Positions 3,584 to 31,569 of a stretch of 32,364 nt of DNA are shown piece by piece. How positions within the stretch are numbered: position 1 is the first letter of the stretch; each line of letters starts with the position of its first letter. The stretch comes from Candidatus Uhrbacteria bacterium RIFOXYB2_FULL_45_11 (GTDB lineage: Bacteria > Patescibacteriota > Patescibacteriia > UBA9934 > GWF2-40-263). Below the pieces are notes generated by a model. The model made no database searches. It was not told the origin of the DNA and saw only the letters and a program-made list of their open reading frames with translations. The translations under genes and the position numbers were made by a program. The stretch covers positions 9,246-41,609 of the forward strand of contig MGFD01000030.1 of the NCBI GenBank assembly GCA_001791715.1. The letters are read 5' to 3'.

Positions 3584-3610
3584 ACCCAACGTAAAGCTGG
3601 GTATTTTTTT
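3584..3610 (+). terminator. rho-independent terminator
   Basis: ACCCAAC-GTAAA-GCTGGGT (one mismatch) followed by a T-run. Confidence 0.55.
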
Positions 3611-3615
3611 ATGTC

Positions 3616-3687: not shown

Positions 3688-3729
3688 TACAAAAACACCG
3701 AACGCAAATGTTCGGTGTTTCTGTATGGC
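3684..3729. terminator. 20-bp-stem palindromic hairpin shared by convergent R2 and tRNA-Ser(UGA)
   Basis: Arms at 3684-3703 and 3710-3729 pair at 19 of 20 positions; the loop is GCAAAT. U-runs follow on both strands. The stem includes the GCCA 3' end of the tRNA. Confidence 0.7.
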
Positions 3730-3814
3730 GGAGAGGGCGAGATTCGAACTCGCGGAAGCTATTAACTTCGACAGTTTTCAAGACTGTTGCCATCAACCAC
3801 TCGGCCACCTCTCC
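3726..3814 (-). tRNA. tRNA-Ser (anticodon UGA), long variable arm, CCA encoded
   Basis: Reverse complement: GGAGAGGTGGCCGAGTGGTTGATGGCAACAGTCTTGAAAACTGTCGAAGTTAATAGCTTCCGCGAGTTCGAATCTCGCCCTCTCCGCCA. Anticodon loop CTTGAAA. Confidence 0.9.
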
Positions 3815-4058
3815 GTAAATTTTCAATGAGTCGCTTGTTTCTGAATGCCTGTCCTGAACCTGATTTGAGATATGTCTCAAATTGTCTTGCTTGAATCCTT
3901 GAGGGGAATGCGCAGTACCAAATAAGCATAACGGGCCTAAGGTTCTTTGTTGATTCTGCTTTCCCAATCTGGTGTTCTTCGAGTCTTCTTTTTAAATCTG
4001 GAGTACAACCTGTGTAGATTGAACTGTTCGATAATTTGAGAAGATAAACGTAGTACAT
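3762..4058 (-). CDS. small GIY-YIG nuclease-domain protein (YhbQ/UPF0213-like)
   Basis: MYYVYLLKLSNSSIYTGCTPDLKRRLEEHQ... from ATG 4058 (the ORF track starts at TTG 4067). The last 17 codons and the stop lie inside tRNA-Ser(UGA). Confidence 0.8.
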   Translation of the reverse strand: MYYVYLLKLSNSSIYTGCTPDLKRRLEEHQIGKAESTKNLRPVMLIWYCAFPSRIQARQFETYLKSGSGQAFRNKRLIENLRRGGRVVDGNSLENCRS

Positions 4059-4134
4059 ATTGGCCAAAGGCCACCCGAAACTTCAACAGATCATCAACTC
4101 TCTTCGCGTCACCCTTCGCCAAGGCTTCGGGTGA

Positions 4135-4179
4135 CACCCTACACTTCAACAATGGTAAACACTGTTGAAGTGTAGGGTG
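4135..4179 (-). terminator. perfect 17-bp hairpin directly after tRNA-Ser(GCU), overlapping its terminal CA
   Basis: caccctacacttcaaca (4135-4151) pairs with tgttgaagtgtagggtg (4163-4179), 17 of 17 positions, with an 11-nt loop. A second hairpin, gtcaccc/gggtgac, lies at 4108-4135. Confidence 0.6.
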
Positions 4180-4272
4180 GCGGAGAGAGAGGGATTTGAA
4201 CCCTCGCGCCGGTTTTAAAGCCGACCTAGGAGATTAGCAATCTCCCCCCTTCAGCCTCTTGGGTATCTCTCC
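4178..4272 (-). tRNA. tRNA-Ser (anticodon GCU), long variable arm, CCA encoded
   Basis: Reverse complement: GGAGAGATACCCAAGAGGCTGAAGGGGGGAGATTGCTAATCTCCTAGGTCGGCTTTAAAACCGGCGCGAGGGTTCAAATCCCTCTCTCTCCGCCA. Confidence 0.9.
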
Positions 4273-4479
4273 TTGAAGGTGCCGTCAGGATACGATATTT
4301 GAGTGAATTGGGCAAGACCTCTTTGTTTGTGCAATGTTCTGCTTTAGAAAAATGAGATTGAGTGGTATTACACTTGACTTTTCTGGGCAAATAATGATAA
4401 GAGGTGCCATTGCTCGTAGGACAAAAAGGTTCTGCTTGCAATGTGTTGCTCTTCACATGAAGAGAAAGGAAGGTGAAAC

Positions 4480-5154
4480 GTGGAATTGCTCGCTGTTCAT
4501 AACCTCGTGTACGAAATGGCGCTTTTGATTGGATGCTTCCTTTCTGTCGGCGCGGTTTTTGGAGGTCATGGTCACGATAGTTCCCATGATCATAATTTGG
4601 ACCATGATGCACATGGTGATTCTCATTCCGGTCATGACCACGAATCAAAGGATTCGAAGAATAGTGATATCTCTGTGCGTTCAAAGTTGAGTCAAGTAAG
4701 TCTGGGAAAATTCCTCTTTTCCGTGCTCGGAATCGGGAATATGCCGATTATGCTTTGGCTCATGATCTTTAACCTGTTTTTTGGAAGCATTGGCATGCTT
4801 ACGAATTTGGTCTTTGGTCCTAACTTGGGATTTGAGATCGTTGGTTTGCTTGTCTCGGTTCCTCTTGCGGGTTTTGGTGCGCTAGTTTTTACAAGCGGAA
4901 CAAGTCATCTGTTTGGGAGATTTGTTCCGACAGATGAAACGTACGCTGTGAAGCGTAAAGAACTTGTTGGATGTGCGGGCATGCTCACACTTCCAGCATC
5001 GAAAGAAACTGGACTCGCGCAAATCTACGATCGTCGTGGAAATTTGCAACAGATCTCAGTTCGTACAATTGAAGGCGAATTGCCAAAAGAGACAAAGATT
5101 ATTGTGATTTATTTCGATGAGGTCGGCGGTTTCTATGTGGTTATCGCTGATTGA
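4480..5154 (+). CDS. NfeD/YqiJ-like membrane protein with a His-rich N-terminal segment and a C-terminal OB-fold
   Basis: GTG at 4480 follows AGGAAGG; an alternative ATG lies at 4516. His-rich run: GGHGHDSSHDHNLDHDAHGDSHSGHDHE. TM helices are followed by ...GLAQIYDRRGNLQQISVRT..KIIVIYFD. It lies upstream of a flotillin gene, as in yqiJ-yqiK. Confidence 0.7.
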   Translation: MELLAVHNLVYEMALLIGCFLSVGAVFGGHGHDSSHDHNLDHDAHGDSHSGHDHESKDSKNSDISVRSKLSQVSLGKFLFSVLGIGNMPIMLWLMIFNLFFGSIGMLTNLVFGPNLGFEIVGLLVSVPLAGFGALVFTSGTSHLFGRFVPTDETYAVKRKELVGCAGMLTLPASKETGLAQIYDRRGNLQQISVRTIEGELPKETKIIVIYFDEVGGFYVVIAD

Positions 5155-5233
5155 TGAGAGATTAGTAGAATGCGGTGAATGGTTCACCGCGACTACTATT
5201 ACCGCTCGCTAAGCGCGAGCATAGAGGTTACCC

Positions 5234-7123
5234 ATGCAACTCGGACTACTCATGCTACTTGGAATTGTTTTCATTTTGGGGCCCGTCGCTGCGAATGTCG
5301 CTGGTCATCCCATGGGTGGGGTTCCGACGACACTTCTTGTTGGAACGGGTCTCATCTTGACTATCGTTTCCGCAGTTCTCGTCATAATCACAAAACTGTA
5401 CGTGAAGACCAAGGCAAACGAAGCCTTCGTTCGTACGGGTATGGGTGGCGTGAAGATTCTGCAGGATGGCGGCGCGATCGTGTTTCCGGTGATTCACGAG
5501 ATCGTCAAGATCACGCTCACTACCATTAAGCTTCAGGTCACGCGTCAGGGTGCAGATGCACTCATCACGCTCGACAAGCTTCGTGCAGATGTGGCAGCTG
5601 AATTCTTTGTTCGTGTGCAGCCCAACACGGAGAGTATCCAGGCTGCGGCGCGAAGTTTCGGTGCCAAAATGGATGATCTCGAATTTGTGACTCGGCTCGT
5701 TGAAGACAAGCTCATTTCCGCGCTGCGTACGGTTGCAGCAACGAAAACCCTTGAGGGTCTCAACACGGAACGCAATGCATTCATCGAGCAGGTAACGCTG
5801 ATCGTTGCGCCGGACTTGGCTCACAACGGCCTCACGCTCGAAACGGCCACGATCAGCAAGCTGGATCAGACGGATCCAAAGAACTTGCGCGATAACAACA
5901 TCTTCGACGCACAAGGGCTGAAGACGATTGCGGAAACGACACAAAAGGCAAAGACCGAGACGAACAATCTTGTTCGCGCCGGAGAGCTTGCGCGTACGCA
6001 GAAGGATGTGGAGACGCGTCAAGCAACGCTTGCACTCGAGCTCACGCAGAAGCAGGCGGAAGCAGATCAGGAAGCTTCTGTCGTTACGGTTCAGGCAGAG
6101 AAGCGGAGCGAGGGTCGTCGGAGGGCGATTGAAGCCGAGCGTCTGTCCGATCTTGCGGATGTGGAAAAGACCACGAACATCGAAGTTGCACAGCAGCAGC
6201 GCTCACAAGCAACGGAAGTTGCCGAGCGCGAGAAGCAGGCGGCTGTCGTTGTGGCGGAACAGAAGGTTGCAGTCGCCGAACGCGACAAGCAGTCTGCTGT
6301 TGCCGCCGCAGAACAGAAGCGTGCGTTGGCAGAAGCCCAGCGTGCGACAGCTGAAGCGGAACTCGAAAAGGCCAAGCAGTCGGTCACGACCGTTCAGGTC
6401 ACGTCCGAAGCGGAGCGAGCAGGTCGCAAACAAGTCATCGAAGCGACAGCTGCGGCAGAGAAGACGTATGTCACTGCGACCAAGCAGGCTGACGGTGATG
6501 CGTACAAGGTGCAGAAGGAAGCTGAAGGTCGCAAGGCGGCGGCAGCGGCAGATGCGGAAGCCATTCGCCAGAAGGCTGATGCGGAATCCGATGCGCAAAA
6601 GAAGAAGGCTGAAGGCGCTAAGGCTGAGCAGTCTGTTCCGGTCGATATCGCGTCGAAGCAAGTCGAAGTCGACAAGGCTCGCGGCATGATCCCCGTGGAC
6701 ATCGCTGCAAAGCAGGTCCTTGTGGACAAGGATCGCGTCGAGACCGTGCTCAAGCCCGAGCTCGAAGCGCGTGACAAGAACGGCAAGGCGGCGCAGGAAT
6801 TCGAACTCGCCAAGTTGCAAGTGACCAAGGAAGCCGAAGTCCGGATCGCGGCCGCGGGTGCTGTGGCTCAGGTTTACGGCAAGATCACGGCTACGGTCTA
6901 CGGTTCGCCCGAAGACGTTGCCAAGGTCGGCGCAGCTGTGGTCAGTGGTATCTCGAAGGCTACGGTCATCGAGAGTTTCATGGGCGAGGCTGGTCCGCTC
7001 ACCAAGGCTGGTCTTCAGGGTGCTCTCAAGTCCCTGCAGCACCTCGTCGACTCCGCGTCCGATCGTCTCAGTGGCGATGCGGCTGTGAAGTCCGGCGAAG
7101 CTCCCAAGGCCGACGAAAAGTAA
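5234..7123 (+). CDS. flotillin-family SPFH/band-7 protein (YqiK-like) with a long Ala/Glu/Lys-rich coiled-coil
   Basis: N-terminal TM, then KANEAFVRTGMGG..IVFPVIHE...LDKLRADV.. SPFH core, then a flotillin-type EA-rich repeat region. Confidence 0.85.
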   Translation: MQLGLLMLLGIVFILGPVAANVAGHPMGGVPTTLLVGTGLILTIVSAVLVIITKLYVKTKANEAFVRTGMGGVKILQDGGAIVFPVIHEIVKITLTTIKLQVTRQGADALITLDKLRADVAAEFFVRVQPNTESIQAAARSFGAKMDDLEFVTRLVEDKLISALRTVAATKTLEGLNTERNAFIEQVTLIVAPDLAHNGLTLETATISKLDQTDPKNLRDNNIFDAQGLKTIAETTQKAKTETNNLVRAGELARTQKDVETRQATLALELTQKQAEADQEASVVTVQAEKRSEGRRRAIEAERLSDLADVEKTTNIEVAQQQRSQATEVAEREKQAAVVVAEQKVAVAERDKQSAVAAAEQKRALAEAQRATAEAELEKAKQSVTTVQVTSEAERAGRKQVIEATAAAEKTYVTATKQADGDAYKVQKEAEGRKAAAAADAEAIRQKADAESDAQKKKAEGAKAEQSVPVDIASKQVEVDKARGMIPVDIAAKQVLVDKDRVETVLKPELEARDKNGKAAQEFELAKLQVTKEAEVRIAAAGAVAQVYGKITATVYGSPEDVAKVGAAVVSGISKATVIESFMGEAGPLTKAGLQGALKSLQHLVDSASDRLSGDAAVKSGEAPKADEK

Positions 7124-7153
7124 GCAATCGTTCGATTCGACGATCATCTCTCA

Positions 7154-7199
7154 CCTCTGAAATCAATGTGCATGCACAAAGATGTCAGAGGGTTTTTTT
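7154..7199 (+). terminator. terminator-like hairpin after the flotillin gene
   Basis: cctctga (7154-7160) pairs with tcagagg (7185-7191), followed by T7. The large loop carries a gtgcatgcac palindrome. Confidence 0.5.
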
Positions 7200-7282
7200 A
7201 TTGTGTTTCCCTTGACTTTTTATTAAAAAATGATACGGTGCGGCCGCTCGTTCTTGTTCCTTTTTCACTTGGAGGTGTGTTC

Positions 7283-8254
7283 ATGTCTGACTTTGTTGAA
7301 CAAACACGTTTGCGATTCGAACAGATGTTTCGTGGTCATCGGACAAGGTTGTCAGAGGTAGCCACACGTTGGCGTCCGGAAATGGATCAGCTCGCACATC
7401 GTGTTGTGGAACTTGTTTGTATGGATGGTCGGATCTCTCCGATCATGCCGTATGGTCTTGCTCCTATTGTTCCAATTGCAGGTGGGGTTCCGCAAGATCA
7501 GAATAAGCCCTATCAGGAATGGCTCAAGCGAAATGTTGGACGCGCAAAAAAAGAAAAGGGCGGACTCATTCAGCTTGTGCAACTTCACACAGAATGCGCA
7601 GCGTTTGATCGAAGTACCGATTTGGCAATTCGGGCCGCGACTCATTTTGACAAACGTGTTCATAAAGCCTATGCGGATGATGTGCACAACATCATTCTGC
7701 TCTATAACGTAATTCATGGAGGTGTGAGTATCTTTGAATCAACGCAACAGCGATGGTATGAACTACTCTCGCTCGATCGTGACCAGAAGCCAAATCCGGA
7801 TTCCGGTTTTTTCAAAGCCGGTTCCATGGCGGCAGGAAATGAAGACCTTGTTTCAGATCTCGCACGCATTGCATACATGGCACGCTTCACACGACAAATA
7901 GCTGGTCGTGTTGTGCAAAAACATCGTGAGCTCGGTATCGTCGCCGGAGACATCACTGTTCCGTGGCGAGGTAATGCAGATTTTCTTAGTTATCGCATGG
8001 ACTTGGTCGATGACACAAGTCACGTACTTCAGTTAAAGCGCGCTGCTGCTGTTGTGCGCGGTGCGCTCAACTCAAGTGGAAAATCTTGTGAACCAATTTG
8101 TATTTTTGTTGTGCGTCGCACAGAAGCCGCGCAAGAAGATGGAAAAAATTCGGTTCAGAAGATTCAAAAGCTTATTGCATCCGTTCTTCCTCAGGAAGAA
8201 GTTGTGCTTTTTCCGTATCACATAACGAAGGCAGATCATCTTGTGGCAGAATAG
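7283..8254 (+). CDS. hypothetical protein with a beta-carbonic-anhydrase-like CxDxR...HxxC motif pair
   Basis: GGAGG lies 7 nt before ATG 7283 (the ORF-track start at 7166 was rejected). VCMDGR places C46/D48/R50 and LHTECAAF places H102/C105, a C-to-H spacing of 56 aa. Confidence 0.6.
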   Translation: MSDFVEQTRLRFEQMFRGHRTRLSEVATRWRPEMDQLAHRVVELVCMDGRISPIMPYGLAPIVPIAGGVPQDQNKPYQEWLKRNVGRAKKEKGGLIQLVQLHTECAAFDRSTDLAIRAATHFDKRVHKAYADDVHNIILLYNVIHGGVSIFESTQQRWYELLSLDRDQKPNPDSGFFKAGSMAAGNEDLVSDLARIAYMARFTRQIAGRVVQKHRELGIVAGDITVPWRGNADFLSYRMDLVDDTSHVLQLKRAAAVVRGALNSSGKSCEPICIFVVRRTEAAQEDGKNSVQKIQKLIASVLPQEEVVLFPYHITKADHLVAE

Positions 8255-8264
8255 AACTCTTTAT

Positions 8265-8295
8265 CACTCTGATCAGAAATGACAGAGTGTTTTTT
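8265..8295 (+). terminator. rho-independent terminator
   Basis: cactctg-atcagaaatga-cagagtg followed by T6. Confidence 0.65.
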
Positions 8296-8357
8296 ATTCA
8301 ATCATCTGAAATAGATGAGTTTTTCTTTTGTGATATTCGATGTAAAATAAACCTGAT

Positions 8358-8615
8358 ATGAAAAAATATTGGTTCAAAGCAAAAACCTATGGCTGGGGTT
8401 GGTATCCTGTAACGTGGCAGGGGTGGCTTGTTATTGTCGGTTTTCTTATTTTGGATGTTGGGAATGTGTATCGGTTAGATTTGGCGCAGGGAACGACGAA
8501 CGAAAAAATCGCCCTTGAATTTGTTTTGGAGACTTTTTTGCTTATTAGTGCCCTTGTCTGGATTTGTTACAAGACCGGAGAAAAACCTGGTTGGAGATGG
8601 GGAAATAAAAAATAA
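8358..8615 (+). CDS. small Trp-rich membrane protein, hypothetical
   Basis: 85-aa ORF with two hydrophobic helices. A TAAAAT hexamer lies 9 nt before the ATG. Confidence 0.55.
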   Translation: MKKYWFKAKTYGWGWYPVTWQGWLVIVGFLILDVGNVYRLDLAQGTTNEKIALEFVLETFLLISALVWICYKTGEKPGWRWGNKK

Positions 8616-8625
8616 ATGATATCGT

Positions 8626-14276: not shown

Positions 14277-15569
14277 TCAATAAGAGGAAAGCTCTTTAAC
14301 GCTCTTCATGGTCTTTGGTGTCACGGATTTCTCAATCCCAACACGCTTTGCCTCCGTCACGCGTTTTTCAACCGCCATCACGTTTCGAATCTCGCCACCG
14401 AGTCCGACTTCGCCGATGTAGACGATCGGCTCACTATCGATGCGATTCTTTGCTGCGCTCATAATCGCCGCGCACACCGCGAGATCAGACGCAGGCTCTT
14501 TTAGTTGCATGCCTCCGACGACGTTCACATACACATCCGATTCGCCAAGATGTAATCCGGCACGCTTCGAGAGGATCGCAATTAACATCTGCAATCGATT
14601 TTGATCCATGCCGTTCGCTCTTCGAACCGGCGTTCCATAAAAGGATTTCTCGACGAGCGCTTGAACTTCTACAAGAAAAATTCTCGAACCTTCGCGCACG
14701 GTCGCAATGACAGACCCAGGAACACTCACGCGTTCCGCAAGAAATCTTGCACTCGGATTCTCGACGGCCTTTAGTCCCTCGCTTGTCATCTCAAATACAC
14801 CAATTTCATCCGTCGCACCAAAACGATTTTTTGTTGCTTCGAGAATACGCAATTCATGTGAAGGTTCACCTGTAAGCGAGAGAACAGTGTCGACAAGGTG
14901 TTCGAGTGTCTTTGGTCCTGCGACGGATCCATCTTTTGTCACTTGGCCGACGAGGAGAAGGGAAATGCCTGTGCGCTTTGCGAGTTCAAGGAGGCAGGAC
15001 GTTGCGTATCGTACGAGCGTGGGCGATCCACTTTGTGCTTCGACGGCGTTTGAAAACATTGTTTGTACAGAATCCACAATCGCGAGTGTGGGCTTTTCTT
15101 TTTCGAGGGTTGCAACCAGTTCTTCAACGGAAACCATCTCAAGAAACTTGATGCGCGAGAGATCTGCGTTTAATCGATCGAAGCGAGACTTGAGCTGCAT
15201 TGCGGATTCCTCACCCGAAACATACAAAACATCATGCTTCGTTGAAGCGATCTTTGCCGCCATGCCTGCAACGAGCGTGGACTTTCCGATTCCAGGCTCG
15301 CCCGAAAGCAATGTGAGCGACCCCGTTACGATCCCTCCACCAAGGACGCGATCAAGTTCATGTTCACCGATGGAGAGGCGTACATGTTCGTCTTGTGCTT
15401 TGATATCTTTAAGCGATGTTGTTTCTTTTGGTTTTGCTTTTGATCCGCTTGCGCGTGTGGCAGGGGAGGGGTGTTCCGTTTCTTCTTTGATCGTGCCCCA
15501 ATGATCGCACGTCAAACATTTACCAGACCATTTCAGTGATTGTGCATCGCAGTGGGTACAATGGAACAT
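14277..15569 (-). CDS. radA: DNA repair protein RadA/Sms
   Basis: N-terminal CxxC..CxxC zinc finger (CTHCDAQSLKWSGKCLTCDHW), GEPGIGKST Walker A, KNRFG motif and a Lon-like C-terminal domain. Confidence 0.95.
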   Translation of the reverse strand: MFHCTHCDAQSLKWSGKCLTCDHWGTIKEETEHPSPATRASGSKAKPKETTSLKDIKAQDEHVRLSIGEHELDRVLGGGIVTGSLTLLSGEPGIGKSTLVAGMAAKIASTKHDVLYVSGEESAMQLKSRFDRLNADLSRIKFLEMVSVEELVATLEKEKPTLAIVDSVQTMFSNAVEAQSGSPTLVRYATSCLLELAKRTGISLLLVGQVTKDGSVAGPKTLEHLVDTVLSLTGEPSHELRILEATKNRFGATDEIGVFEMTSEGLKAVENPSARFLAERVSVPGSVIATVREGSRIFLVEVQALVEKSFYGTPVRRANGMDQNRLQMLIAILSKRAGLHLGESDVYVNVVGGMQLKEPASDLAVCAAIMSAAKNRIDSEPIVYIGEVGLGGEIRNVMAVEKRVTEAKRVGIEKSVTPKTMKSVKELSSY

Positions 15570-15592
15570 ACATTAAGGTTTTGGATTCAGTG

Positions 15593-17101
15593 CTAGTCAC
15601 CAATTGGTCTGCTTATTTGAACAACGATATCTTGTGCACCAAATTTTGTTGTACTCATGTGAACAAAATGGCGTCCGTCAGCACTTTCGATATTCGCAAC
15701 ACGATTTGTTTTATCCTGCCACCCAAGAAACATTGCGGAGTGAGCTGCACCCACAGATGGATTCCAGTTCACGATCACGTAATAATCACCTGGCTGCAAG
15801 TCGTCTACCCAAGACGGTGACCAGTTTTTTCCACCTGTTGCAGTTTGAAGTAATTGCGTTAGTCGTTGGGCGGCTTCTTGTTTTGTTTTGTAACACGGTT
15901 CTTTCCATTTTCCATTACCAAATGGTGCTGCTGGGCAAAAGATTCCTTTCGTAGCATCAGCAATTGTTAATCCATCAATTGTTTTTAAGCTGAGTGCGTT
16001 GTGTAATATTTTTCTTCCGTTACCGTATCCAAGTGAATTACATTCTTTTGTGACATCCTTGTTTATTAGACAGCGCTCAGCTTCAGGAGATGATCCGGGT
16101 TTTGATGCAAGAGCATATATAGCATGAGTCGCTGCTCCACAGTTTGCATATTGAATTTTACATAGTGAAGCGGCCTCTACAGCCTGAAGCACTCGCTCGA
16201 CTCTTGTGGATCCTGTCAGCAGACTTCTAATTTTTTCATGAAATTCAAGACGTCTAGGAAGATTGTGTGCGACATATTTGATCGGTTTTGTATTTTTTGG
16301 TGGATTGACGTACTCGTTATCATGTGTCAATTGGACTGGGCATTTACCGTCTTTAAAATACTTATAATCAAAAGGACCGGCTTCGTATTGATCTGGAGAC
16401 AAAGTCTCTGGACTAAAATTATATTCCACCTCCTGCACGTTTTGTAGCTCAATCATTTTTTGTAAGACTAACTGTGGATTTGTTGTTTTTAAAACAAGAA
16501 AGACACAGAGCAAAAGAACGAGTCCCGTCACTCCGTTTTTTATACGATCTTTACCTTTTTCAACTTGTGCCGAACTTGCTGCACCGATAGTATATTGTAA
16601 ACCGCCAACCATAATCATAACGATTGCAATGATCGTCGCCGTGCCAATAAGAAAAGCGTAAATTGCATTTAAATAGTCCGCAACAAAACTTGTTTTTATC
16701 GTTGTTGCTGTGATGATTGGATCAGAAAATTTTAGTCCCGGAATTTCTACGTTGAGTATTGGGGTAATGAGAGCTTTAGGGGCCGCCTTGGTTGGACTGG
16801 GTGCTGTGGATGTAGCTGTTTTGGTTGCAATAAACTTCTCGTGTGTTTGTCTACATTGTTGAAACACAATTTCTCCCTCAATATCTTCTGCAAATTTGGA
16901 AGAAGCAAAATTATCTGTAAGGTTTTTTTTGCATGCGGCGGTACAGGCAGCTTCCGTTTCGTCTTTTATGGAAAGAGGTGCTGCCTGACAATCGTTTTCG
17001 GTTGTTGTGCAAACACAGGTTCCGGCAAAGGCAACATGGATCGGCATGCATGTGCCGAGCATGAGAAAAAATGCGAAGAAGAGTTTCCAAAGAGATGTCA
17101 T
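15593..17101 (-). CDS. exported protein: Cys-rich N-terminal domain, T4SS-pilin-like two-TM module and a papain-fold (NlpC/P60- or CHAP-like) C-terminal domain
   Basis: Signal peptide; GTCVCTT..DC..C...C pattern; TPILNVEIPGLKFS; IVMIMVGGLQYTIGA...; NPQLVLQKMIELQNVQEVE. C-terminus has NCGAATHAIY and LQPGDYYVIV..AAHSAMFLGW. The first ~230 aa are paralogous to the 17111..18505 protein. Confidence 0.7.
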   Translation of the reverse strand: MTSLWKLFFAFFLMLGTCMPIHVAFAGTCVCTTTENDCQAAPLSIKDETEAACTAACKKNLTDNFASSKFAEDIEGEIVFQQCRQTHEKFIATKTATSTAPSPTKAAPKALITPILNVEIPGLKFSDPIITATTIKTSFVADYLNAIYAFLIGTATIIAIVMIMVGGLQYTIGAASSAQVEKGKDRIKNGVTGLVLLLCVFLVLKTTNPQLVLQKMIELQNVQEVEYNFSPETLSPDQYEAGPFDYKYFKDGKCPVQLTHDNEYVNPPKNTKPIKYVAHNLPRRLEFHEKIRSLLTGSTRVERVLQAVEAASLCKIQYANCGAATHAIYALASKPGSSPEAERCLINKDVTKECNSLGYGNGRKILHNALSLKTIDGLTIADATKGIFCPAAPFGNGKWKEPCYKTKQEAAQRLTQLLQTATGGKNWSPSWVDDLQPGDYYVIVNWNPSVGAAHSAMFLGWQDKTNRVANIESADGRHFVHMSTTKFGAQDIVVQISRPIGD

Positions 17102-17110
17102 AGTGGGGTA

Positions 17111-18505
17111 TTAGCAGTGTGCGGGAAACGGACAATTTGGATAACTGCATCGACAATAGGTGTCTGCTTTACTTTTTAGCTCAAAGTGCCAGATTTCTTC
17201 TGCGTATCTTACAAAGCCGGCTTGTGTCATGATTTGCGACAAGAGTTGCGCACCATCTTTGTATTTTTGGTTTTGTTGATTGGTGGTGTTAAAGGATGGA
17301 TCTGTAAGAGCCGTACTTCCTTTTTTCAACATGATGTCGATTGCAATACCGCTTCCGTGATTGGATCCACCTGGATAGGCGATTGCTGTTCCGATGCCGG
17401 CGATCTTTTTTTCATCTCCAGTTGCAATGACATCGCAAACCATTTCAATTTGTCGCTTGAGTGGACGATAGGCTGAAATAAGATGAATGGTATAAGCGCT
17501 ATCCATGGACTGTGCAATTTCTCCTGCTTTTTTTAACGCATCTTGCACTTCTTTTGTCACTTGTCCTTTTGGTCCGCTTCCACCTTCATTTACAAAACCG
17601 GGTGCATTTGGTGCTTTTGAAACAAGATTCGGATCGATTGTTTTTGGATTGCTTGATGGCCATGTGTTTTTATCCGTCGCACAAAGTGTTTTACATGCTT
17701 CGGGGTTGCCGCAAACACGTATAGAGCTTGCACTTATTCCACTTGAAGCCATTTGTTCGTCCGACACAACATCTCCTTTGTGTTCTGGAACTTCGACCGT
17801 TTGTACATTTTGAAGTTCAATCGTTTTCATGAGGGTGAGTTGTGGATTGGATGTATACAAAATAAGATAAACCCCAAGAAGCAGGACAAGCCCTGTGAGG
17901 GCGTTTGTGATGCGTGTTTTTCCTTTAGAAACATCCCCGCCACTTGCGGCCATCACATATTGCAATCCTCCAACCATCACCATGACGATTGCGATGGTGA
18001 TGGAGGCGAAAATGAGGAATTTATAGACAGCCGATAGGTAATCAGCGAGGAAGGATGACTTTACAGATGTGGTCGTTGCGATGGCTTTTGAAAAGGAGAG
18101 ACCTGGAATGGGAACGTTGAGGATTGGGGTCGTGGTGGCAGAAGGAGTTTTTGAAGCGGAGGTGTCTGAGCTTGAATCGGTTTTTGATGCAAGAAATGCA
18201 TTATGTTTTTTTTGACAGGAGGATGCAAGAATTTCACCTTCCGTACCATCTGCAAATTCACTTGATGCGAAACTTTTTCCGACGTCTTTTACACAAACTT
18301 CTTTACAACTGTTTGTAGATTGTTGTGAGACAGAAAGAGAAACCGCGCGACAATCTGTGTCTTTTGTTGTGCACACGCATGTTCCGTCTGCAAACGCAAA
18401 CGAGGATGGAAGTGAAAAACCCATCAAGACAAAAAAGAAGATGAGATGTTTTGTGAAACGAAAAATAGAAGCAAGATTATTTTTGTGCAGCAAGTTCGTC
18501 TGCAA
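17111..18505 (-). CDS. exported protein: the same Cys-rich and T4SS-pilin-like module fused to a VanY/M15B-type D-Ala-D-Ala carboxypeptidase domain
   Basis: DGTCVCTT..DC; TPILNVPIPGLSFS; IVMVMVGGLQYVMAA; NPQLTLMKTIELQNVQTVE. C-terminus has SAYRPLKRQ, GGSNHGSGIAIDI and EEIWHFE. The start is uncertain (TTG 18505 or 18493) and overlaps the dsbA-like stop. Confidence 0.75.
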   Translation of the reverse strand: MQTNLLHKNNLASIFRFTKHLIFFFVLMGFSLPSSFAFADGTCVCTTKDTDCRAVSLSVSQQSTNSCKEVCVKDVGKSFASSEFADGTEGEILASSCQKKHNAFLASKTDSSSDTSASKTPSATTTPILNVPIPGLSFSKAIATTTSVKSSFLADYLSAVYKFLIFASITIAIVMVMVGGLQYVMAASGGDVSKGKTRITNALTGLVLLLGVYLILYTSNPQLTLMKTIELQNVQTVEVPEHKGDVVSDEQMASSGISASSIRVCGNPEACKTLCATDKNTWPSSNPKTIDPNLVSKAPNAPGFVNEGGSGPKGQVTKEVQDALKKAGEIAQSMDSAYTIHLISAYRPLKRQIEMVCDVIATGDEKKIAGIGTAIAYPGGSNHGSGIAIDIMLKKGSTALTDPSFNTTNQQNQKYKDGAQLLSQIMTQAGFVRYAEEIWHFELKSKADTYCRCSYPNCPFPAHC

Positions 18506-19133
18506 TCGCTTTTGTTAAATCATTCGCAGAAGGTACGCCCACAATGGATGTGCTGTTGATAAAAAGCGTTGGGGTTGCGAGGATTCCCAAATTCAGAGCC
18601 TCCTGAAGATTTTTTTGCACAATGGGTAATGTATCTTTTGAAGAAAGACATTTTGAGAACGTTGTTTCATTTAATCCAAGTTCTGTGCCAATTTGTGTAA
18701 ATTGTGTTTCGGATAAGTATGTTTGTCGATCAAACAAGGCAGATGCATATTCCCAAAATTTTCCTTGGCGCGCGGCACAGTGTGCGGCAACGGATGCGCT
18801 TGTTGCGTTTGGGTGTGCGGAATCGTTTGGCATGTCTTTCCAAACAAAACGTACATCATTTGGAAACGTCATGAGAGCGACATCGATAATCGGGTTGAGT
18901 TGTTTACAGGCCGCACACTCAAAATCGGAATAGACAACAAGAGTGACTTTTGCCTTTGGAGCTCCGCGTATCGGATCAACAAACGTGACGCTTGGGGTTT
19001 TTAGTGTGGCAGAATTTGTGTTCGTTATTTTTGGTTTTGGAAGCGGAATGGGTTGTGTGCGAATGAAAAAAAACACAAAAACCATGACGGTTAAAAAGCC
19101 AATCACGAGATATGCAAGGAGACGATCGCGCAT
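18477..19133 (-). CDS. DsbA-family thiol:disulfide oxidoreductase, membrane-anchored
   Basis: From ATG 19133: MRDRLLAYLVIGFLTVMVFVFFF (TM segment), FECAACKQ (CxxC) and a thioredoxin-fold remainder. The upstream 27 codons in the ORF track read through element H2. Confidence 0.8.
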   Translation of the reverse strand: MRDRLLAYLVIGFLTVMVFVFFFIRTQPIPLPKPKITNTNSATLKTPSVTFVDPIRGAPKAKVTLVVYSDFECAACKQLNPIIDVALMTFPNDVRFVWKDMPNDSAHPNATSASVAAHCAARQGKFWEYASALFDRQTYLSETQFTQIGTELGLNETTFSKCLSSKDTLPIVQKNLQEALNLGILATPTLFINSTSIVGVPSANDLTKAIADELAAQK

Positions 19134-19255
19134 AGGAATGTTTGAGGTACAGATTACAGATAAGACATACAGATATACAGATGGGAAAAAAGCAGACGTG
19201 CTCTCCGCCTTCATTTGTATATCTGTATGCCGCCATTTGTAATCTGTACCTCAAA
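19134..19255 (-). repeat. intercistronic element H2: TACAGAT-type heptamer arrays forming a long inverted repeat, abutting the dsbA-like ATG
   Basis: Arms at 19141-19184 and 19212-19255. An outer 18-bp and an inner 13-bp perfect helix are separated by an internal loop. Junction on the mRNA strand: CATTCCT-ATG. Confidence 0.8.
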
Positions 19256-19258
19256 TGT

Positions 19259-20506
19259 TTACTTCAACTTAATAAGCTTAAGCTGTCCGGAAAAGGCGTC
19301 TGTGTAATATAAGGAGGAACCGTCTGCGCTTACGGAAAGATTTGACATGGTTGTGTCTCTTTCTGGAATGGCGACAACTTCGTTGCGACCGTTTGTGAGA
19401 TTGAGTTTATAAAGCGTGTCCGGACGGTTTTCATAAAGGGTTCTTTGTAATCCGGCATTGCTTGGAAGGTTTTGCGGTACGGCACAGTAGACAATTGTTT
19501 CTGAACTCCATGTACATTTATCAACCCATGTATTGATGCCAAGGCTGTGTCGATTTTCTCCCATACTTGCCGATGTTCCGTTCACAAGCCACAAGAGTGG
19601 CTTGCCTTGTGAATAATCGCCATAAACGGAATAGAGAATCGTTTTTCCGCTCGGGGACCAGGAAGGGGAAAAACCAAATCCCTCTACCACAAGTCCTTTG
19701 AAATTTTCTTGATTTTTTCCAACCGGATAAATCACCTTTGTATCAAATCCAGATGTGCTGTTGTTTCCGACAATGGATGACGTGTCGGCAAAGGCGATCA
19801 CTTGATCGTTTGGAGACCAGCTGACATCTACCTTGTCCGCATTTTCTCCGAGGGCCTGAACGGAAGTGACGTTTGAACCGTTGTCGTTTGAAAGTACGAG
19901 CCAGCGATTGTTTGGATCGAGCGCAAGGCTTTTTGCGATCAAGTTATCTGATGACGGAGAAAATTCTACGTCTTCCCAGTGTTTTGGAAGCGTGACTTGT
20001 GATTGTGTTTGAAAATTGTAAACGATTTTTGAATCATCCGGAAAAACCATGACTGCTTTTTCTGCATCGCGATTCCATTCAACACTTTGAACGTTTGGAA
20101 ATGTTTGATTTGAAAGTTTTACGATATTTCCATCTTTATCGATGGTATAAAAAAATCCATCATCTTCATTATAAAAATTGATTTTGTTTCCGTCTTTGCT
20201 CAGTGTTGTATTTTGAACCGGGGCTGATGTGAGCGTGATGGTTTTTGTGATTCCTCCATCAGCAATACTTGCAGCCTCTGGAAGCGTACCGTCATTTGTT
20301 GTACTTAATCCGTTTCCTGATCCAGGAGTTCCGTCAAGAGAAGGGGTAAGAGAACCTGTTGGGGTCTCTGTTGTTGAGACGGGTTCGCCGTTAGACGTTG
20401 TGCTTGGACTTTCCGTAAAAAAGACAATATACATGGCAAGACCAATCACAATGACGGACCCAATGAACCCAATGATGAGTAAGATGCGTTTTGGACGTTC
20501 TTGCAT
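19259..20506 (-). CDS. TolB-like PD40 beta-propeller repeat protein with an N-terminal TM anchor
   Basis: WSPNDQVIAF, WSPSGKTILY and FSPSSDNLIA repeats; an N-terminal hydrophobic helix. Confidence 0.7.
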   Translation of the reverse strand: MQERPKRILLIIGFIGSVIVIGLAMYIVFFTESPSTTSNGEPVSTTETPTGSLTPSLDGTPGSGNGLSTTNDGTLPEAASIADGGITKTITLTSAPVQNTTLSKDGNKINFYNEDDGFFYTIDKDGNIVKLSNQTFPNVQSVEWNRDAEKAVMVFPDDSKIVYNFQTQSQVTLPKHWEDVEFSPSSDNLIAKSLALDPNNRWLVLSNDNGSNVTSVQALGENADKVDVSWSPNDQVIAFADTSSIVGNNSTSGFDTKVIYPVGKNQENFKGLVVEGFGFSPSWSPSGKTILYSVYGDYSQGKPLLWLVNGTSASMGENRHSLGINTWVDKCTWSSETIVYCAVPQNLPSNAGLQRTLYENRPDTLYKLNLTNGRNEVVAIPERDTTMSNLSVSADGSSLYYTDAFSGQLKLIKLK

Positions 20507-20565: not shown

Positions 20566-21471
20566 TCAAAATAATTTGCTGATCCCGAAGCCAACAAGAA
20601 GCGCTGGAGAAGCCATGAGAAGAAGCATCAAAACTTGAACGGCAAACAGGATAACAACAATGGTAATGACAATGAGATCGGCCATGATGACCATTCCTTG
20701 GAGGATGATTCCATTTTTATCAATGGGCATTGGGATCGGATCCCAAGAGAGTCTGCCAATGACAGGATCTTTTCCTTTTTTGAGCCATGTTCCATACACC
20801 ATTTCTACGTTGAGCCAACCTAGGCTGAGCAGGTGAATAAAAATGGTGACAACAAGACCAGCTCCTCCTGTTCCTAAATCAAGGGCCGTTGAAATAAAAT
20901 TTGCTCCTGCATTTGCGGCTTTTGGAACCATTTTTTTGGCTGCTTGTTTGGCAGCATCTTGTGCGGCTCTTGTTGCATCGGCTTGTTGTGCGCGCGCATT
21001 GTCATTTTGTGGAAGATCCGCCGCATCTATGAGTGCGCCTTTAATGCGCACAAGCTGCATGAACGACTGAAAAGAAACTCGTCGTTGCTCTTCTTGTTCT
21101 TCTTCCTCTTGATCCTCGTCCTCATTTTCTTGCGCGCGTGCCGCCTGTGCGGGTTGTCTGAGTGGATTTTGTGCTTGTAATTGATTCGTTCGTAATGTGG
21201 ATTGCCTTTGTAGGGGAGACTGCATGGGTGCTCTTGGGGTTTGCGATGATCCTGTGCGCATGATTTGATCGATGTTTGATTCACGATTCATGCCAGGAAT
21301 ACGATTTTGAGCGAAGACACTTTTACGTTCCGCAATACTGCGTGTCTCTTGCGAGGTTGTACTTCCTGCAGACTTAATCATTTGCCCACCAGCTTTGGCG
21401 ACACCTTGTGTGAGTTTTGCGGCGCCCTGTCCCATTTTGACAGCGCCTTGTGCGACAGCTTGTAAGGCCAT
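20566..21471 (-). CDS. hypothetical low-complexity protein (Gln/Ala-rich, acidic stretch) with C-terminal TM helices
   Basis: 301 aa. The start lies 2 nt after the clpC stop. Contains ENEDEDQEEEEQEEQ and a hydrophobic C-terminal third. Confidence 0.55.
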   Translation of the reverse strand: MALQAVAQGAVKMGQGAAKLTQGVAKAGGQMIKSAGSTTSQETRSIAERKSVFAQNRIPGMNRESNIDQIMRTGSSQTPRAPMQSPLQRQSTLRTNQLQAQNPLRQPAQAARAQENEDEDQEEEEQEEQRRVSFQSFMQLVRIKGALIDAADLPQNDNARAQQADATRAAQDAAKQAAKKMVPKAANAGANFISTALDLGTGGAGLVVTIFIHLLSLGWLNVEMVYGTWLKKGKDPVIGRLSWDPIPMPIDKNGIILQGMVIMADLIVITIVVILFAVQVLMLLLMASPALLVGFGISKLF

Positions 21472-28728: not shown

Positions 28729-29652
28729 TTGGAATTTAAAGCGGACAGTAAAAAAGAAACGATTTGGTTAACACAGCAACAAGTTGCGCAGCTTTTTGAT
28801 GTTCAAAAGGCCGCAATTTCAAAGCATGTTAAGAACATCTTTGATACAAAAGAACTTTCTTATCAAGCAACTGTTTCCAAAATGGAAACAGTTCAAATTG
28901 AAGGAGAGAGAAAAATTAAACGTTCGGTTGAGTATTACAATCTTGATTTAGTTTTGTCTGTGGGTTATCGCGTAAATTCGATTAAAGCTACGCAATTCCG
29001 CCAATGGGCAACCAAAACGTTGCGTCAGCACATCACAAAGGGGTACACCATTAATCCAAAAGTCATTAAAAATCATTACGCCGAATTTCAGAAAGCGATT
29101 CAGAATATTAAACAGCTTTTGCCGGCAGAAACAAATATTGATCACGCAAGTGTATTAGAGTTGATCTCTGCGTTCGCGGACACATGGATTTCGCTTGAGG
29201 CGTATGACAAAGACACATTTGCCACAAAAGGAACAACAAAAAAATCCATCACCATTACCTCTGACATGCTTTCTCAAGCGCTCGCAGAATTAAGGCGCGT
29301 GCTTATGAAGAAAAAAGAAGCAACCGAGTTGTTTGGATCTGAACGCAAATCAGGAAGTGTTCAGGGAATTGTTGGAAACATCATGCAAACATTTGGCGGC
29401 AAGCAACTCTATCCAACCATTGAAGAGAAAGCCGCGAACCTTTTGTACTTCATGGTCAAAGATCATCCATTCTCTGACGGCAATAAGCGCAGTGGTGCGT
29501 ATGCGTTTGTTTGGTTTTTAAATCAAGCCGGTGTTTTGAATCGCTCAACACTCACCCCACCAGCTCTTACGGCACTTACGCTTTTCATCGCGGAAAGTGA
29601 TCCAAAACACAAAGATAAAATGATTGGTCTTGTTTTGCAGCTTCTGAAATAA
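28729..29652 (+). CDS. RhuM-like N-terminal domain fused to a Fic/Doc domain (Doc-type HPFSDGNKR motif); the 5' end is probably disrupted or mis-called
   Basis: TIWLTQQQVAQLF..YYNLDLVLSVGYRVNS..QFRQWAT parallels the RhuM gene at 30535. C-terminus has DHPFSDGNKRSGAYAF. Homology to the paralogue continues upstream of 28729 in the same frame, with no ATG there. Confidence 0.75.
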   Translation: MEFKADSKKETIWLTQQQVAQLFDVQKAAISKHVKNIFDTKELSYQATVSKMETVQIEGERKIKRSVEYYNLDLVLSVGYRVNSIKATQFRQWATKTLRQHITKGYTINPKVIKNHYAEFQKAIQNIKQLLPAETNIDHASVLELISAFADTWISLEAYDKDTFATKGTTKKSITITSDMLSQALAELRRVLMKKKEATELFGSERKSGSVQGIVGNIMQTFGGKQLYPTIEEKAANLLYFMVKDHPFSDGNKRSGAYAFVWFLNQAGVLNRSTLTPPALTALTLFIAESDPKHKDKMIGLVLQLLK

Positions 29653-29711
29653 CCCTTGATGTTTTGATGAAAATAAGGCAAGCTTGCCTCAAATTCACCT
29701 AACGTCCATCT

Positions 29712-30425
29712 ATGTCCACAAAATTGGAACAAATCGAATCCCTTTCGGAACAAAATTCCCTTGAAGCGATCCAAGCGCTTCTTGAGATCTTGCAAGATGA
29801 AACACTCACAGAAGAAGAGCTTGAAGCCGCAGAAGAAGCGTTTGAGACCGTCTCTTTTTTGCACGCGCTTCCACAAAATGAAGAAGAAGAGCGTGATGTC
29901 AAACTTTGTGCGCTCATTGCAAAGCGTCTCGACTATTTGCAAGACCTCGCGTTTGATTTTTACGAAGAGTCTGAAAATTTGGAACGTTGTAAATTAGAAT
30001 CTGAAGTTGCGGCTCGTATGCTGGAGCTTGCAACAGAAGATCAAAAGCAAGATCGCGAAATTGGCGTAAGTGTTGCGCATGACATGCTCGTCATGGCAGA
30101 AGAATCCTGCTCAACGGTTGAAGCTGAACTTGAACGCACAAACGAATGGATCGAATGCGCACACGACATGCTTCTCACACAAAAGTACCGCGCGCTCCCT
30201 GAAGAATGTTTTGAAGTGTTGTTCCCATCGGATGATGAGGATGAAGATGAAGAAGAATTTGATTGCTGCGGCGAGGATGATTGTGGAAGTGAAGAGTGTG
30301 AAGGATGTGACGATTGTACTGGTGGATGTAACGGAGAAGGATGTGAAGGCGGATGTGAGGAAGATATTGTGGAGGATGAAGAAGAGATGGAGGAAGGATG
30401 CTGCGGCGGAGGATGCTGCAAGTAA
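29712..30425 (+). CDS. extremely acidic hypothetical protein with a Cys-rich C-terminal tail
   Basis: 237 aa, Glu/Asp-rich throughout. The last 54 residues contain 13 Cys (DCCGEDDCGSEECEGCDDCTGGCNGEGCEGGC...GCCGGGCCK). Confidence 0.65.
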   Translation: MSTKLEQIESLSEQNSLEAIQALLEILQDETLTEEELEAAEEAFETVSFLHALPQNEEEERDVKLCALIAKRLDYLQDLAFDFYEESENLERCKLESEVAARMLELATEDQKQDREIGVSVAHDMLVMAEESCSTVEAELERTNEWIECAHDMLLTQKYRALPEECFEVLFPSDDEDEDEEEFDCCGEDDCGSEECEGCDDCTGGCNGEGCEGGCEEDIVEDEEEMEEGCCGGGCCK

Positions 30426-30431
30426 ATAAAA

Positions 30432-30459
30432 AGCCGAGCCTGTGAGGGCTTGGCTTTTT
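30432..30459 (+). terminator. terminator hairpin T1 (identical copy at 31590)
   Basis: agccgagcc-tgtgag-ggcttggct followed by T-run. Confidence 0.75.
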
Positions 30460-30534
30460 ATATCCACACAAACCTTTCTTTTTTGAGGGCAATAGGGAAA
30501 GATTGGGATAACTATTTTTTTTACACACAACCCT

Positions 30535-31569
30535 ATGGAAAAGAAAGAATTAAACAACGAAATTATTATCTATCAATCCAAGGATGGACTTACAAAAGTC
30601 GATGTTCAAATGGATGGCGATACGATATGGGTTTCTCAAGCACAACTTGCCGAATTGTTTGGTGTGACTTCACAAAACATCACTATTCACTTAAAAAATA
30701 TCTTTTCCGATGGTGAATTAGATGAAAATCGAACTTGTAAAGAATCCTTACAGGTTCAAAAAGAAGGTGATCGTGAAGTGCAGCGAAAGATAAAAATGTA
30801 TAATTTAGATGTAGTGATTTCGGTTGGTTATCGTATTAACTCTAATATTGCCACGAATTTCCGTATTTGGGCTACAACGCGTCTGCGTGAATATATCGTT
30901 AAGGGTTTTACAATGAATGATGATTTTCTCAAAGAGAGTGGTGGTGGCAAATATTGGCATGAATTGCTTGATCGCATTCGTGACATACGTAGTAGTGAGA
31001 AGGTTTTGTATCGTCAGGTGCTTGATCTGTATGCCACCAGTCTTGATTACAATCCAAAAGCATTGGAATCTATAACGTTCTTCAAAATCGTACAAAATAA
31101 ATTGCACTACGCGGCCCATGGCAACACCGCTGCGGAGGTCATTGCCGCACGAGCAAATGCCGGCAAGCCATTTATGGGTTTGTTGAGTTTTTCGGATGGC
31201 GGAGTAAGTAAAAAAGATATTGCTATTGCAAAAAATTATCTTGATGAGAAAGAGTTAAAGATTTTAAATAATATTGTTTCCGCATTTTTTGATTTGGCGG
31301 AAGTGAAGGTATTGGAACGCCATCCCATGTACATGAAAGACTGGATAACCCAACTCGATAAGTTGATCAGCGCTTTTGACAAAAAAGTTCTTACAGAAAC
31401 TGGCTCAATCAGTCATGAACAGGCAAATGAAAAAGCCGTGAGTGAATATCGCAAGTATCAAGCAAAGATATTGTCTCCGGTTGAGGAGGTGTATTTGGAG
31501 AGTTTGAAGGTGTTGGAAAAGGAGGTGGGGAAGAAGATGAAGGGGGATAGAGTGAAAGAAGGAAAATAG
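30535..31569 (+). CDS. rhuM: RhuM family virulence-associated protein
   Basis: IIIYQSKDGLTKVDVQMDGDTIWVSQAQLAELF..MYNLDVVISVGYRINS..NFRIWATTRLREYIVKGF...KYWHELLDRIRDIRSSEK, the canonical RhuM layout. Confidence 0.85.
   Translation: MEKKELNNEIIIYQSKDGLTKVDVQMDGDTIWVSQAQLAELFGVTSQNITIHLKNIFSDGELDENRTCKESLQVQKEGDREVQRKIKMYNLDVVISVGYRINSNIATNFRIWATTRLREYIVKGFTMNDDFLKESGGGKYWHELLDRIRDIRSSEKVLYRQVLDLYATSLDYNPKALESITFFKIVQNKLHYAAHGNTAAEVIAARANAGKPFMGLLSFSDGGVSKKDIAIAKNYLDEKELKILNNIVSAFFDLAEVKVLERHPMYMKDWITQLDKLISAFDKKVLTETGSISHEQANEKAVSEYRKYQAKILSPVEEVYLESLKVLEKEVGKKMKGDRVKEGK

Follow-up and report, generated by a model that had tools for sequence, protein, structure and literature searches.

We analysed a 32,364-nt stretch of DNA from Candidatus Uhrbacteria bacterium RIFOXYB2_FULL_45_11 (contig MGFD01000030.1), referred to in full as the window, and focused on two tandem genes, A and B, whose products are predicted to be exported, have a VirB2-like pilin module in their N-terminal regions, and differ in their C-terminal domains, here termed heads. 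We rate the locus as a fixed, DsbA-linked slot for a polymorphic family of wall hydrolases in which the VirB2-like pilin module does not vary. The fuller reading, in which this polymorphic cassette of DsbA-dependent, pilin-anchored wall hydrolases is directed at hosts or other non-self cells, is in our judgement evenly poised, its architecture-level core included. Genes A and B and the dsbA-like gene all lie on the (-) strand. The open reading frames (ORFs), the tandem layout and the motifs that an earlier note on this DNA had described were all found in the translations, and the organism, which that note took to be a cell of the candidate phyla radiation (CPR), is indeed a member of the Uhrbacteria. 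Related loci (L0xx labels) were collected by a pattern scan with an anchor profile, using one genome per GTDB species; the scan yielded 45 loci, from which 43 ORFs with an anchor::head layout were extracted. The genes under study and their parts, with TM denoting a transmembrane helix, are as follows.

15593..17101, (-) strand: gene A, 502 aa from an ATG start; signal peptide, six-Cys domain, VirB2-like anchor and orphan Cys/His head
17024..17101, (-) strand: A signal peptide, aa 1-26, reading ...HVAFA/G in the translation, with a hydrophobic segment at 3-21
16772..17023, (-) strand: A N-terminal six-Cys domain and S/T/P/A-rich linker, aa 27-110, common to B and to L009 slot 2
16424..16771, (-) strand: A anchor core, aa 111-226, comprising the PILNVEIPGLKFS motif, TM1, a K/R-rich loop, TM2 and NPQL..IELQNVQEVE, from alignment, Pfam and topology
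15596..16423, (-) strand: A head, aa 227-502, a sequence-orphan, putative papain-like Cys-His hydrolase
16139-16141 and 15740-15742, (-) strand: codons of Cys321 and His454, respectively, in head A
17111..18505, (-) strand: gene B, 464 aa from TTG 18505; signal peptide, six-Cys domain, VirB2-like anchor and predicted VanY/M15 head
17792..18136, (-) strand: B anchor core, aa 124-238, 66% identical to the A core and 86% to the L009 slot-1 core
17114..17791, (-) strand: B head, aa 239-464, with 8 Cys; the VanY domain, aa 315-437, corresponds to nt 17195-17563
18477..19214, (-) strand: DsbA-like membrane-anchored thiol-disulfide oxidoreductase, 245 aa, with a CAAC motif

The shared anchor and replacement of the heads

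BLASTP aligned residues 6-226 of A with residues 19-238 of B at 54% identity and 70% positives (E 4e-61) and found nothing significant beyond, the two proteins being unrelated past the motif NPQL..IELQNVQ.VE. The earlier statement that they have the same first ~230 residues therefore stands as homology but not as identity. The two-TM module, which had been likened to type IV secretion system (T4SS) pilins, was recovered with the Pfam model T4SS_pilin (PF18895). This model scored 31.3 bits over aa 144-203 of A (gathering cut-off 26.6) and matched 42 of the 43 related anchor::head proteins (E<=0.01); in B it scored 18.5 bits, under the cut-off, the B core having the 66% identity to the A core listed above. 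The shared architecture was found again in 43 of the 45 related loci, which excludes a chance origin.

Hydrophobic helices were located at 147-165 and 187-205 in A and at 163-181 and 199-217 in B, in each case after a signal peptide ending in AFA. In 61 related anchors the loop between the helices contains on average 3.8 K+R versus 1.4 D+E. By the positive-inside rule, this excess predicts that the loop is cytoplasmic and that the six-Cys N-terminal domain and the head are both outside the cell. The anchor also retains the additional conserved motifs PxLxVxIPxLxF and NPxL..L.N, and it has weak similarity to a pilin-like protein from a mycoplasma integrative and conjugative element (ICE). At 502 and 464 aa, with relatives ranging from 321 to 776 aa, these proteins are not small stand-alone subunits (~100-150 aa). 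Such subunits were nevertheless detected by the same profile in a metagenome-assembled genome (MAG) from outside the Uhrbacteria (L051, 4308-6685), where six small pilin ORFs of 94-139 aa form a classical array, and the anchor is therefore homologous to ordinary CPR pilin arrays.

The start of gene B can be placed at more than one codon. TTG 18505 gives an overlap of 29 nt with the 3′ end of dsbA and TTG 18493 one of 17 nt, while ATG 18424, the choice of gene callers (437 aa), avoids the overlap but truncates the signal peptide. A TTG start is favoured because conservation with the L009 orthologue extends from aa 14 onward. The overlap between the DsbA gene and the first gene of the pair, as claimed earlier, thus holds with either TTG codon and is lost with the ATG. 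Downstream, the spacing is 9 nt from B to A and 23 nt from A to RadA. A protein identical to the product of gene A is present on 11 public contigs, and window proteins were also found on a groundwater metagenome scaffold in ENA.

Replacement of the heads is most clearly seen by comparison with locus L009, in which RadA is 97%, ClpC 91%, and DsbA and the PD40 protein 83% identical to their counterparts in the window, and both heads are different. B is 75% identical to the protein in slot 1 of L009 through the signal peptide, the Cys domain and the anchor as far as aa 249, and unrelated past that point; A is 59% identical to the slot-2 protein as far as aa 231 and likewise unrelated thereafter. 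At the DNA level, blastn of the window against L009 produced collinear high-scoring segment pairs over RadA (14299-15593), the A anchor (16423-17106), the B anchor together with dsbA (17809-19137), PD40/u301 and ClpC, and the two gaps between them are exactly head A and head B. When locus L011 was compared with the window in the same manner, gene A was precisely what was absent. The junction lies ~10 residues past the conserved NPQL..IELQNVQ motif.

Anchor cores cluster according to lineage and slot position rather than head type. The B core, which precedes a VanY head, is 86% identical to an L009 slot-1 core that precedes an NlpC-like head, and the A core shares 72% identity with that of L009 slot 2, where head U8 follows. 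Similar pairs occur elsewhere: a VanY anchor in L026 and a C39_2 anchor in L022 are 84% identical, and a C39_2 anchor in L017 and an M15_4 anchor in L015 are 80% identical. Descent from old paralogues with differential loss was considered and rejected for close relatives, in which anchors of like slot and lineage fall together and the breakpoints in the DNA match the borders of the heads. Collectively, these alignments argue that head swapping is real and recent, and that the locus has the conserved module and polymorphic C-terminus of polymorphic effector systems. The proposal of a conserved anchor with exchangeable hydrolase heads is in this respect borne out, as heads vary on orthologous anchors across genomes, and the case that had been named as its refutation, an ordinary autolysin duplication without head variability, is ruled out by the replacement observed relative to L009.

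Slot content, the DsbA link and the two heads

Nearly all of the 45 loci come from Candidatus Uhrbacteria or Patescibacteria MAGs. Some third-party annotation (TPA) MAGs bear the title 'uncultured Gammaproteobacteria'; these are probably mislabelled, since their loci are syntenic with Uhrbacteria loci. With window proteins as probes, the gene order (HtpX)-ClpC-u301-PD40-DsbA-[1-3 anchor::head genes]-RadA-RecG was found to be kept in ~30 loci. The clpC and radA genes are presumably adjacent in Bacillus subtilis; in these Uhrbacteria genomes u301, PD40, DsbA and the anchor::head genes all lie between them. The slot is never empty, with at least one anchor::head gene in every genome surveyed. In the window, the genes that border and accompany the slot are the following.

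14277..15569, (-) strand: RadA, downstream border of the variable slot, from Pfam and synteny
19259..20506, (-) strand: PD40/TolB-like beta-propeller with an N-terminal TM helix (PD40 36 bits; weak TolB match)
20566..21471, (-) strand: u301, with a low-complexity Q/A/E-rich N-terminal half and C-terminal TM helices
21474..23951, (-) strand: ClpC-like ATPase, upstream border of the locus, from Pfam and synteny

The u301 protein has no Pfam or NCBIfam match and always occupies the same position (ClpC>u301>PD40>DsbA). It is just 41-43% identical in relatives in which RadA is 92-94% identical, and is thus a fast-evolving surface or membrane protein; it may functionally be part of the locus.

The C-terminal extensions of the 43 anchor::head ORFs range from 106 to 568 aa and typically contain 8-16 cysteines per head. 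A survey for paralogues with other heads, which had been suggested earlier, was productive: VanY/M15, Peptidase_M15_4, M23, NlpC/P60, C39_2/C70/C10, Amidase_2, SLT and glucosaminidase heads were all found, and several further heads in relatives are Cys-rich domains without a Pfam match. Slot contents were as follows.

VanY alone: L011, L014, L021, L026, L030
VanY + head A: window, L008
NlpC-like + U8: L009
C39_2 + VanY + frameshifted Amidase_2: L010
head A + U10: L012
M23 + M15_4: L015
M23 + C39_2: L017, L032
VanY + Amidase_2: L019, L024
Amidase_2 + VanY: L020
Glucosaminidase + SLT: L033
Amidase_2 + C39_2: L036

Remote members of the head-A family that lie on long contigs occupy the same slot or a rearranged version of it. 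A few loci depart from the simple tandem form. At 5704-8034 in L018, a single ORF of 776 aa contains two pilin modules together with M23 and NlpC/P60 heads, as if a tandem pair had been fused by read-through. One anchor of L010 (7042-7761) overlaps an Amidase_2 ORF (7706-8617) in a different frame, and the two are probably one frameshifted anchor::Amidase_2 gene. In L053, from a more distant lineage, anchor::headA-like and anchor::VanY genes are interleaved (3187-8318) with two opposite-strand genes of ~600 aa that have faint FGE-sulfatase-like matches.

The same genomes have a second locus type, arranged as RNase J / solute-binding protein / DsbA / anchor::Cys-rich head / UvrA and represented by L031, L038-L040, L042-L044 and L046-L049. 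Its heads contain 12-32 Cys and lack a Pfam match; UvrA and an uncharacterized protein of ~490-570 aa usually follow, and the solute-binding protein and RNase J often precede.

The position of the slot bears on whether the genes could be prophage or mobile-element lysins, that is, an endolysin-like cassette acquired from a phage or an ICE. The head families are common in phage endolysins, and close relatives either have gene A whole or lack it altogether. However, Pfam scans of the window revealed no genes for phage proteins, integrases or relaxases near the locus, which keeps its chromosomal position in ~30 genomes; a scan of 2.9 million viral contigs found no relative of the anchor, and the layout of a signal peptide plus anchor is unlike that of holin/endolysin pairs. 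This explanation is largely refuted, and we leave it only a trace of probability.

The gene upstream of B matched the Pfam models Thioredoxin_4 (90.4 bits) and DSBA (48.5 bits) and has its CAAC active-site motif at residue 100. In 38 of 43 loci the gene directly upstream of the anchor::head gene encodes a DsbA homologue, and this conservation, beyond mere plausibility, supports a functional link between DsbA and the anchor::head genes. The idea, voiced earlier, that the oxidoreductase fits a need for disulfide formation agrees with this arrangement and with the cysteine content of the heads.

The VanY/M15B assignment proposed for the head of the 464-aa protein was upheld. VanY (PF02557) scored 41.2 bits (cut-off 25) over aa 315-437 of B and Peptidase_M15 scored 30.1 bits (cut-off 27), the two matches together spanning aa 315-447. 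Head B was aligned to B. subtilis YodJ (PDB 4ox3; E 2.7e-7), which we take to be the LD-carboxypeptidase LdcB, and the B motifs SAYRPLKRQ, AYPGGSNHGSGIAIDI and EIWHF fell opposite the substrate-binding, zinc-binding and catalytic motifs of YodJ. The YodJ counterparts are SGYRSYDRQ, SEHQTGLAMD and EPWHL, as compared with SAYRPLKRQ, SNHGSGIAID and EIWHF in B, so that SxYR..RQ, H-x6-D and ExxH are all in register. Head B keeps the zinc ligands (H-x6-D plus the distal H) as well as the catalytic E in ExxH and the R in SxxR that binds substrate. Head B is thus predicted to be a bona fide M15B-type peptidase whose bond specificity is not assignable.

The head of the 502-aa protein had been described as a papain-fold domain of the NlpC/P60 or CHAP type. 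The predicted topology, a Cys/His pair and weak fold matches agree with the papain-like part of this description; family membership by sequence does not hold. Head A alone gave no Pfam match at E<=10, there was no NlpC_P60 or CHAP match among 36 relatives, phmmer and profile searches of the PDB returned no sequence match, and hhalign against a C39_2-headed relative gave a probability of 0.3%. As every sequence test failed (Pfam, PDB and hhalign), assignment to NlpC/P60 or CHAP was rejected. An exhaustive profile search of 1.84 billion representatives placed head A in a family of 166 clusters at E<=1e-3, in which the domain is always C-terminal. T4SS_pilin is present in 71 of 95 scanned members, and the heads of these match no known family. 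Word-index homology searches are nearly blind to the family, with 2, 3 and 17 matches. It is a fairly large and previously uncatalogued family (~166 clusters) that lacks a Pfam model.

In the 36-sequence alignment of head A, residues C314, C321, G438, D439, N447, H454 and F458 are invariant. An AlphaFold model built from this alignment reached a predicted local distance difference test score (pLDDT) of 88.9 and a predicted template modelling score (pTM) of 0.88; an earlier model based on a 3-sequence alignment (pLDDT 40) was discarded. In the retained model, Cys321 is the first residue of helix 95-106 and His454 is at the start of strand 227-237 (head numbering), and the segments 'PGDYYVIV' and 'HSAMFLGW' are strands 1 and 2 of a five-stranded sheet. 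The predicted topology is that of an NlpC/P60-, CHAP- or papain-like arrangement. Foldseek results were used solely as qualitative enrichment for papain-like lysins. The best PDB fold match, a weak one, was the MurNAc-L-Ala amidase 4q68 (E 0.17, TM-score 0.32-0.36), followed by weak matches to the LysK and LysGH15 CHAP domains, staphopain and PCAT1 C39 (E 0.6-2); in BFVD, phage lysins, NlpC/P60 and CHAP proteins were matched weakly (E 0.04-0.2). Head A is probably a sequence-orphan, papain-like Cys/His hydrolase, as opposed to a demonstrable NlpC/P60 or CHAP member.

Possible self and non-self targets of the predicted hydrolases

In a host- or non-self-directed cassette, the proteins would be exported through the Sec pathway by means of a cleavable signal peptide and inserted into the membrane as VirB2-like hairpins, with the K/R-rich loop in the cytoplasm and the six-Cys domain and head outside. 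The co-encoded, presumably co-transcribed, membrane-anchored DsbA would oxidise their many cysteines. Head B would act as a zinc VanY/LdcB-type peptidase on the stem peptides of peptidoglycan, and head A would probably act as a papain-like hydrolase with Cys321 and His454. Heads would be replaced by recombination at the fixed junction past NPQL..ELQN, while the anchor, DsbA, PD40, u301 and ClpC/RadA stay in place. The heads would be active muralytic enzymes. Their preferred target would be foreign peptidoglycan, that of a host or neighbour at the cell-cell interface, and not the producer's own wall, a reading suggested by the very fast turnover of the heads.

Three considerations were counted in favour of a non-self role: head turnover between near-identical strains, the faster-evolving surface neighbours, and the use of a pilin module. 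This module may let the proteins be drawn into a T4SS-type pilus. In Southlakia, epibiotic growth requires stand-alone relatives of the VirB2-like pilin module (PMC10633639, PMC12857230). A bolder version, which we think improbable, is that of a lytic pilus, in which the CPR T4SS would pull enzyme-bearing VirB2-like pilins out of the membrane and assemble them, alone or with small pilins, into a filament with hydrolases on its surface or at its tip that drill the host wall. The interchangeable heads would then tune the epibiont to the chemistry of the host wall and help to set host range. Alternatively, the conserved NPxL motif past TM2 could be a processing site that frees the head.

Several observations weigh against a cassette directed at other cells. 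Immunity-like genes, a survey for which had been suggested earlier, are absent: the 9-nt and 23-nt gaps leave no room for one, and no small ORF recurs in the slot across ~30 loci. Neither the window nor the second type of locus was found to encode VirB4, VirB6, VirD4 or any other T4SS component, and the neighbours found were housekeeping genes (RNase J, solute-binding protein, UvrA). Of the polymorphic-toxin logic invoked in the earlier note, the constant module with a variable head at orthologous loci is therefore present, and the immunity genes and adjacent secretion apparatus are not. The heads start ~25 residues past TM2, a tether so short that membrane-bound heads would have access to no wall but that of the producer. 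Each genome keeps one or more of these genes in operon-like housekeeping surroundings, an arrangement that is also compatible with a core autolysin role. For head A, Foldseek searches of the PDB and BFVD gave no significant match (best E 0.17 and 0.04, respectively), and no conserved third catalytic residue was identifiable in the 36-sequence alignment.

Much of this evidence is shared by another explanation, namely that the proteins are housekeeping autolysins. The hairpin would be a mere lineage-specific anchor, the heads would remodel the cell's own wall during growth, septation and turnover, and their exchange would be tolerated by redundancy; the modular autolysins and endolysins of Firmicutes offer a parallel for redundant head exchange. 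We consider this explanation possible, though with the balance tipped against it. It accounts for the conserved clpC...radA housekeeping neighbourhood, the occurrence of at least one slot gene in each genome surveyed, the lack of immunity genes and adjacent T4SS genes, and the short tether that holds the heads beside the producer's wall, and VanY/LdcB-type enzymes typically trim the cell's own stem peptides. What it accommodates less well is the replacement of both heads where RadA is 97% identical, which is unusually fast for core autolysins, and the acceptance by one slot of enzymes that cut quite different bonds. In addition, the evolution of the neighbouring surface proteins u301, PD40 and DsbA outpaces that of the flanks, and the anchor keeps conserved motifs that exceed the needs of a plain TM anchor.

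A stand-alone Peptidase_M15_4 protein without a pilin anchor is encoded at 1912-2643 of the window on the (-) strand (78 bits). A conventional wall peptidase is thus encoded in this genome too, a point that bears on the question of self versus host targets.

Homology of the anchor to T4SS pilins, and its weak similarity to the mycoplasma ICE pilin-like protein, also raise the possibility of VirB1-VirB2 fusions that form the wall-opening part of a CPR T4SS, with the pilin module targeting the hydrolase to the assembling channel or pilus and the hydrolase opening the producer's own wall locally. Membrane-anchored hydrolases are required by monoderm T4SSs, and VirB1 homologues in CPR bacteria seldom adjoin virB4 (PMC12102498). 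One Uhrbacteria contig carries VirB4-like, TraC-like and PrgI genes 7-10 kb from an anchor::head gene, so that at least some of these organisms have a T4SS. On the other hand, neither locus type lies within a T4SS cluster, a machine-assembly factor would not be expected to switch heads between near-identical strains, and there are up to three tandem copies per genome in addition to the second DsbA-linked locus. We regard such fusions as decidedly doubtful.

Other features of the window and comparison with known systems

Outside the locus, a 71-nt direct repeat (97% identical) at 2568-2638 and 3616-3686 flanks a 277-aa ORF without a Pfam match at 2702-3535 on the (+) strand. The repeat region adjoins a tRNA-Ser (3726-3814) and could be an att-like duplication left by a small inserted element or a repeated structured RNA. 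Given the repeat copy at 2568-2638, the TTG start at 2643 of the M15_4 ORF is probably over-extended. At 28729-31569 on the (+) strand, an unannotated 237-aa ORF separates two neighbouring RhuM-family genes, and the first of these two genes also has a fused Fic/DOC domain; the region may be a toxin or defence islet. Positions 6001-7000 are anomalous in composition (GC 0.60, AT skew +0.245) and lie inside a 629-aa SPFH/Band_7 ORF, where the anomaly is probably a low-complexity coding repeat.

The wider question addressed by the A/B locus is how CPR/Patescibacteria epibionts breach or exploit the envelopes of their hosts. The CPR T4SS with VirB2-like pilins is essential in the sole system tested, and our comparisons show routine fusion of the pilin module, within one large CPR lineage, to peptidoglycan hydrolases of nearly every class. 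Current annotation conceals this anchor::hydrolase architecture; the NCBI product name of a 508-aa orthologue is just 'pilin'. The locus supplies testable candidates for attack on the host wall or for wall remodelling and amounts to a natural domain-swapping experiment with mapped junctions. We found no mention of pilin-hydrolase fusions in the papers on CPR T4SSs that were searched.

CPR VirB2-like pilin arrays are small, T4SS-linked and without an enzyme (PMC12102498). Compared with these pilins (PF18895, e.g. the array of Southlakia epibionticum), the proteins described here have the same two-helix hairpin after a signal peptide, are often tandem and divergent, and come from the same superphylum. 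The known pilins, however, are stand-alone proteins of ~100-150 aa in arrays near virB4, whereas those described here are 320-780 aa in length and have an N-terminal Cys-rich domain, a C-terminal enzyme, a dsbA neighbour in a housekeeping context, and extra motifs. With the VirB1-type hydrolases of monoderm systems (PrgK, TcpG, CwlT, TrsG) they have in common membrane-tethered, extracytoplasmic domains of the SLT, M23, NlpC/P60 and CHAP types. Those enzymes use a single N-terminal TM helix or a lipobox, are encoded inside T4SS operons and have fixed domains; here, the pilin is the anchor and the heads are interchangeable.

At the level of the individual heads, head B has the same SxYR, H-x6-D and ExxH motifs as LdcB/YodJ and VanY (MEROPS M15B) and differs from them in its 8 extra cysteines and a long insert. 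Head A is predicted to have in common with the papain-like NlpC/P60 and CHAP enzymes a Cys as the first residue of a helix, the strand motif 'PGD...H', and a core consisting of a helix and a five-stranded sheet. It differs from them in matching no hidden Markov model, in its large Cys-rich insertions, and in having no significant structural neighbour.

Modular type IV pilus (T4P) pilins such as PilB and PilC of Streptococcus sanguinis also carry an extra functional domain for display on a filament. They belong to an unrelated class that is not VirB2-like, and their grafted modules are adhesive and not enzymatic. Finally, the exchange of heads at a fixed junction behind a constant N-terminal module is the same as in polymorphic toxins, which include contact-dependent inhibition (CDI) and Rhs proteins, type VI and type VII secretion system (T6SS/T7SS) effectors and the peptidoglycan-hydrolase effectors of the Xanthomonas T4SS (X-Tfe), and in the domain swapping of colicins and pyocins. 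The present family differs from these systems in having no cognate immunity gene and no adjacent secretion apparatus, and in that every head that can be assigned is predicted to be a wall hydrolase, as opposed to a nuclease, deaminase or pore former.

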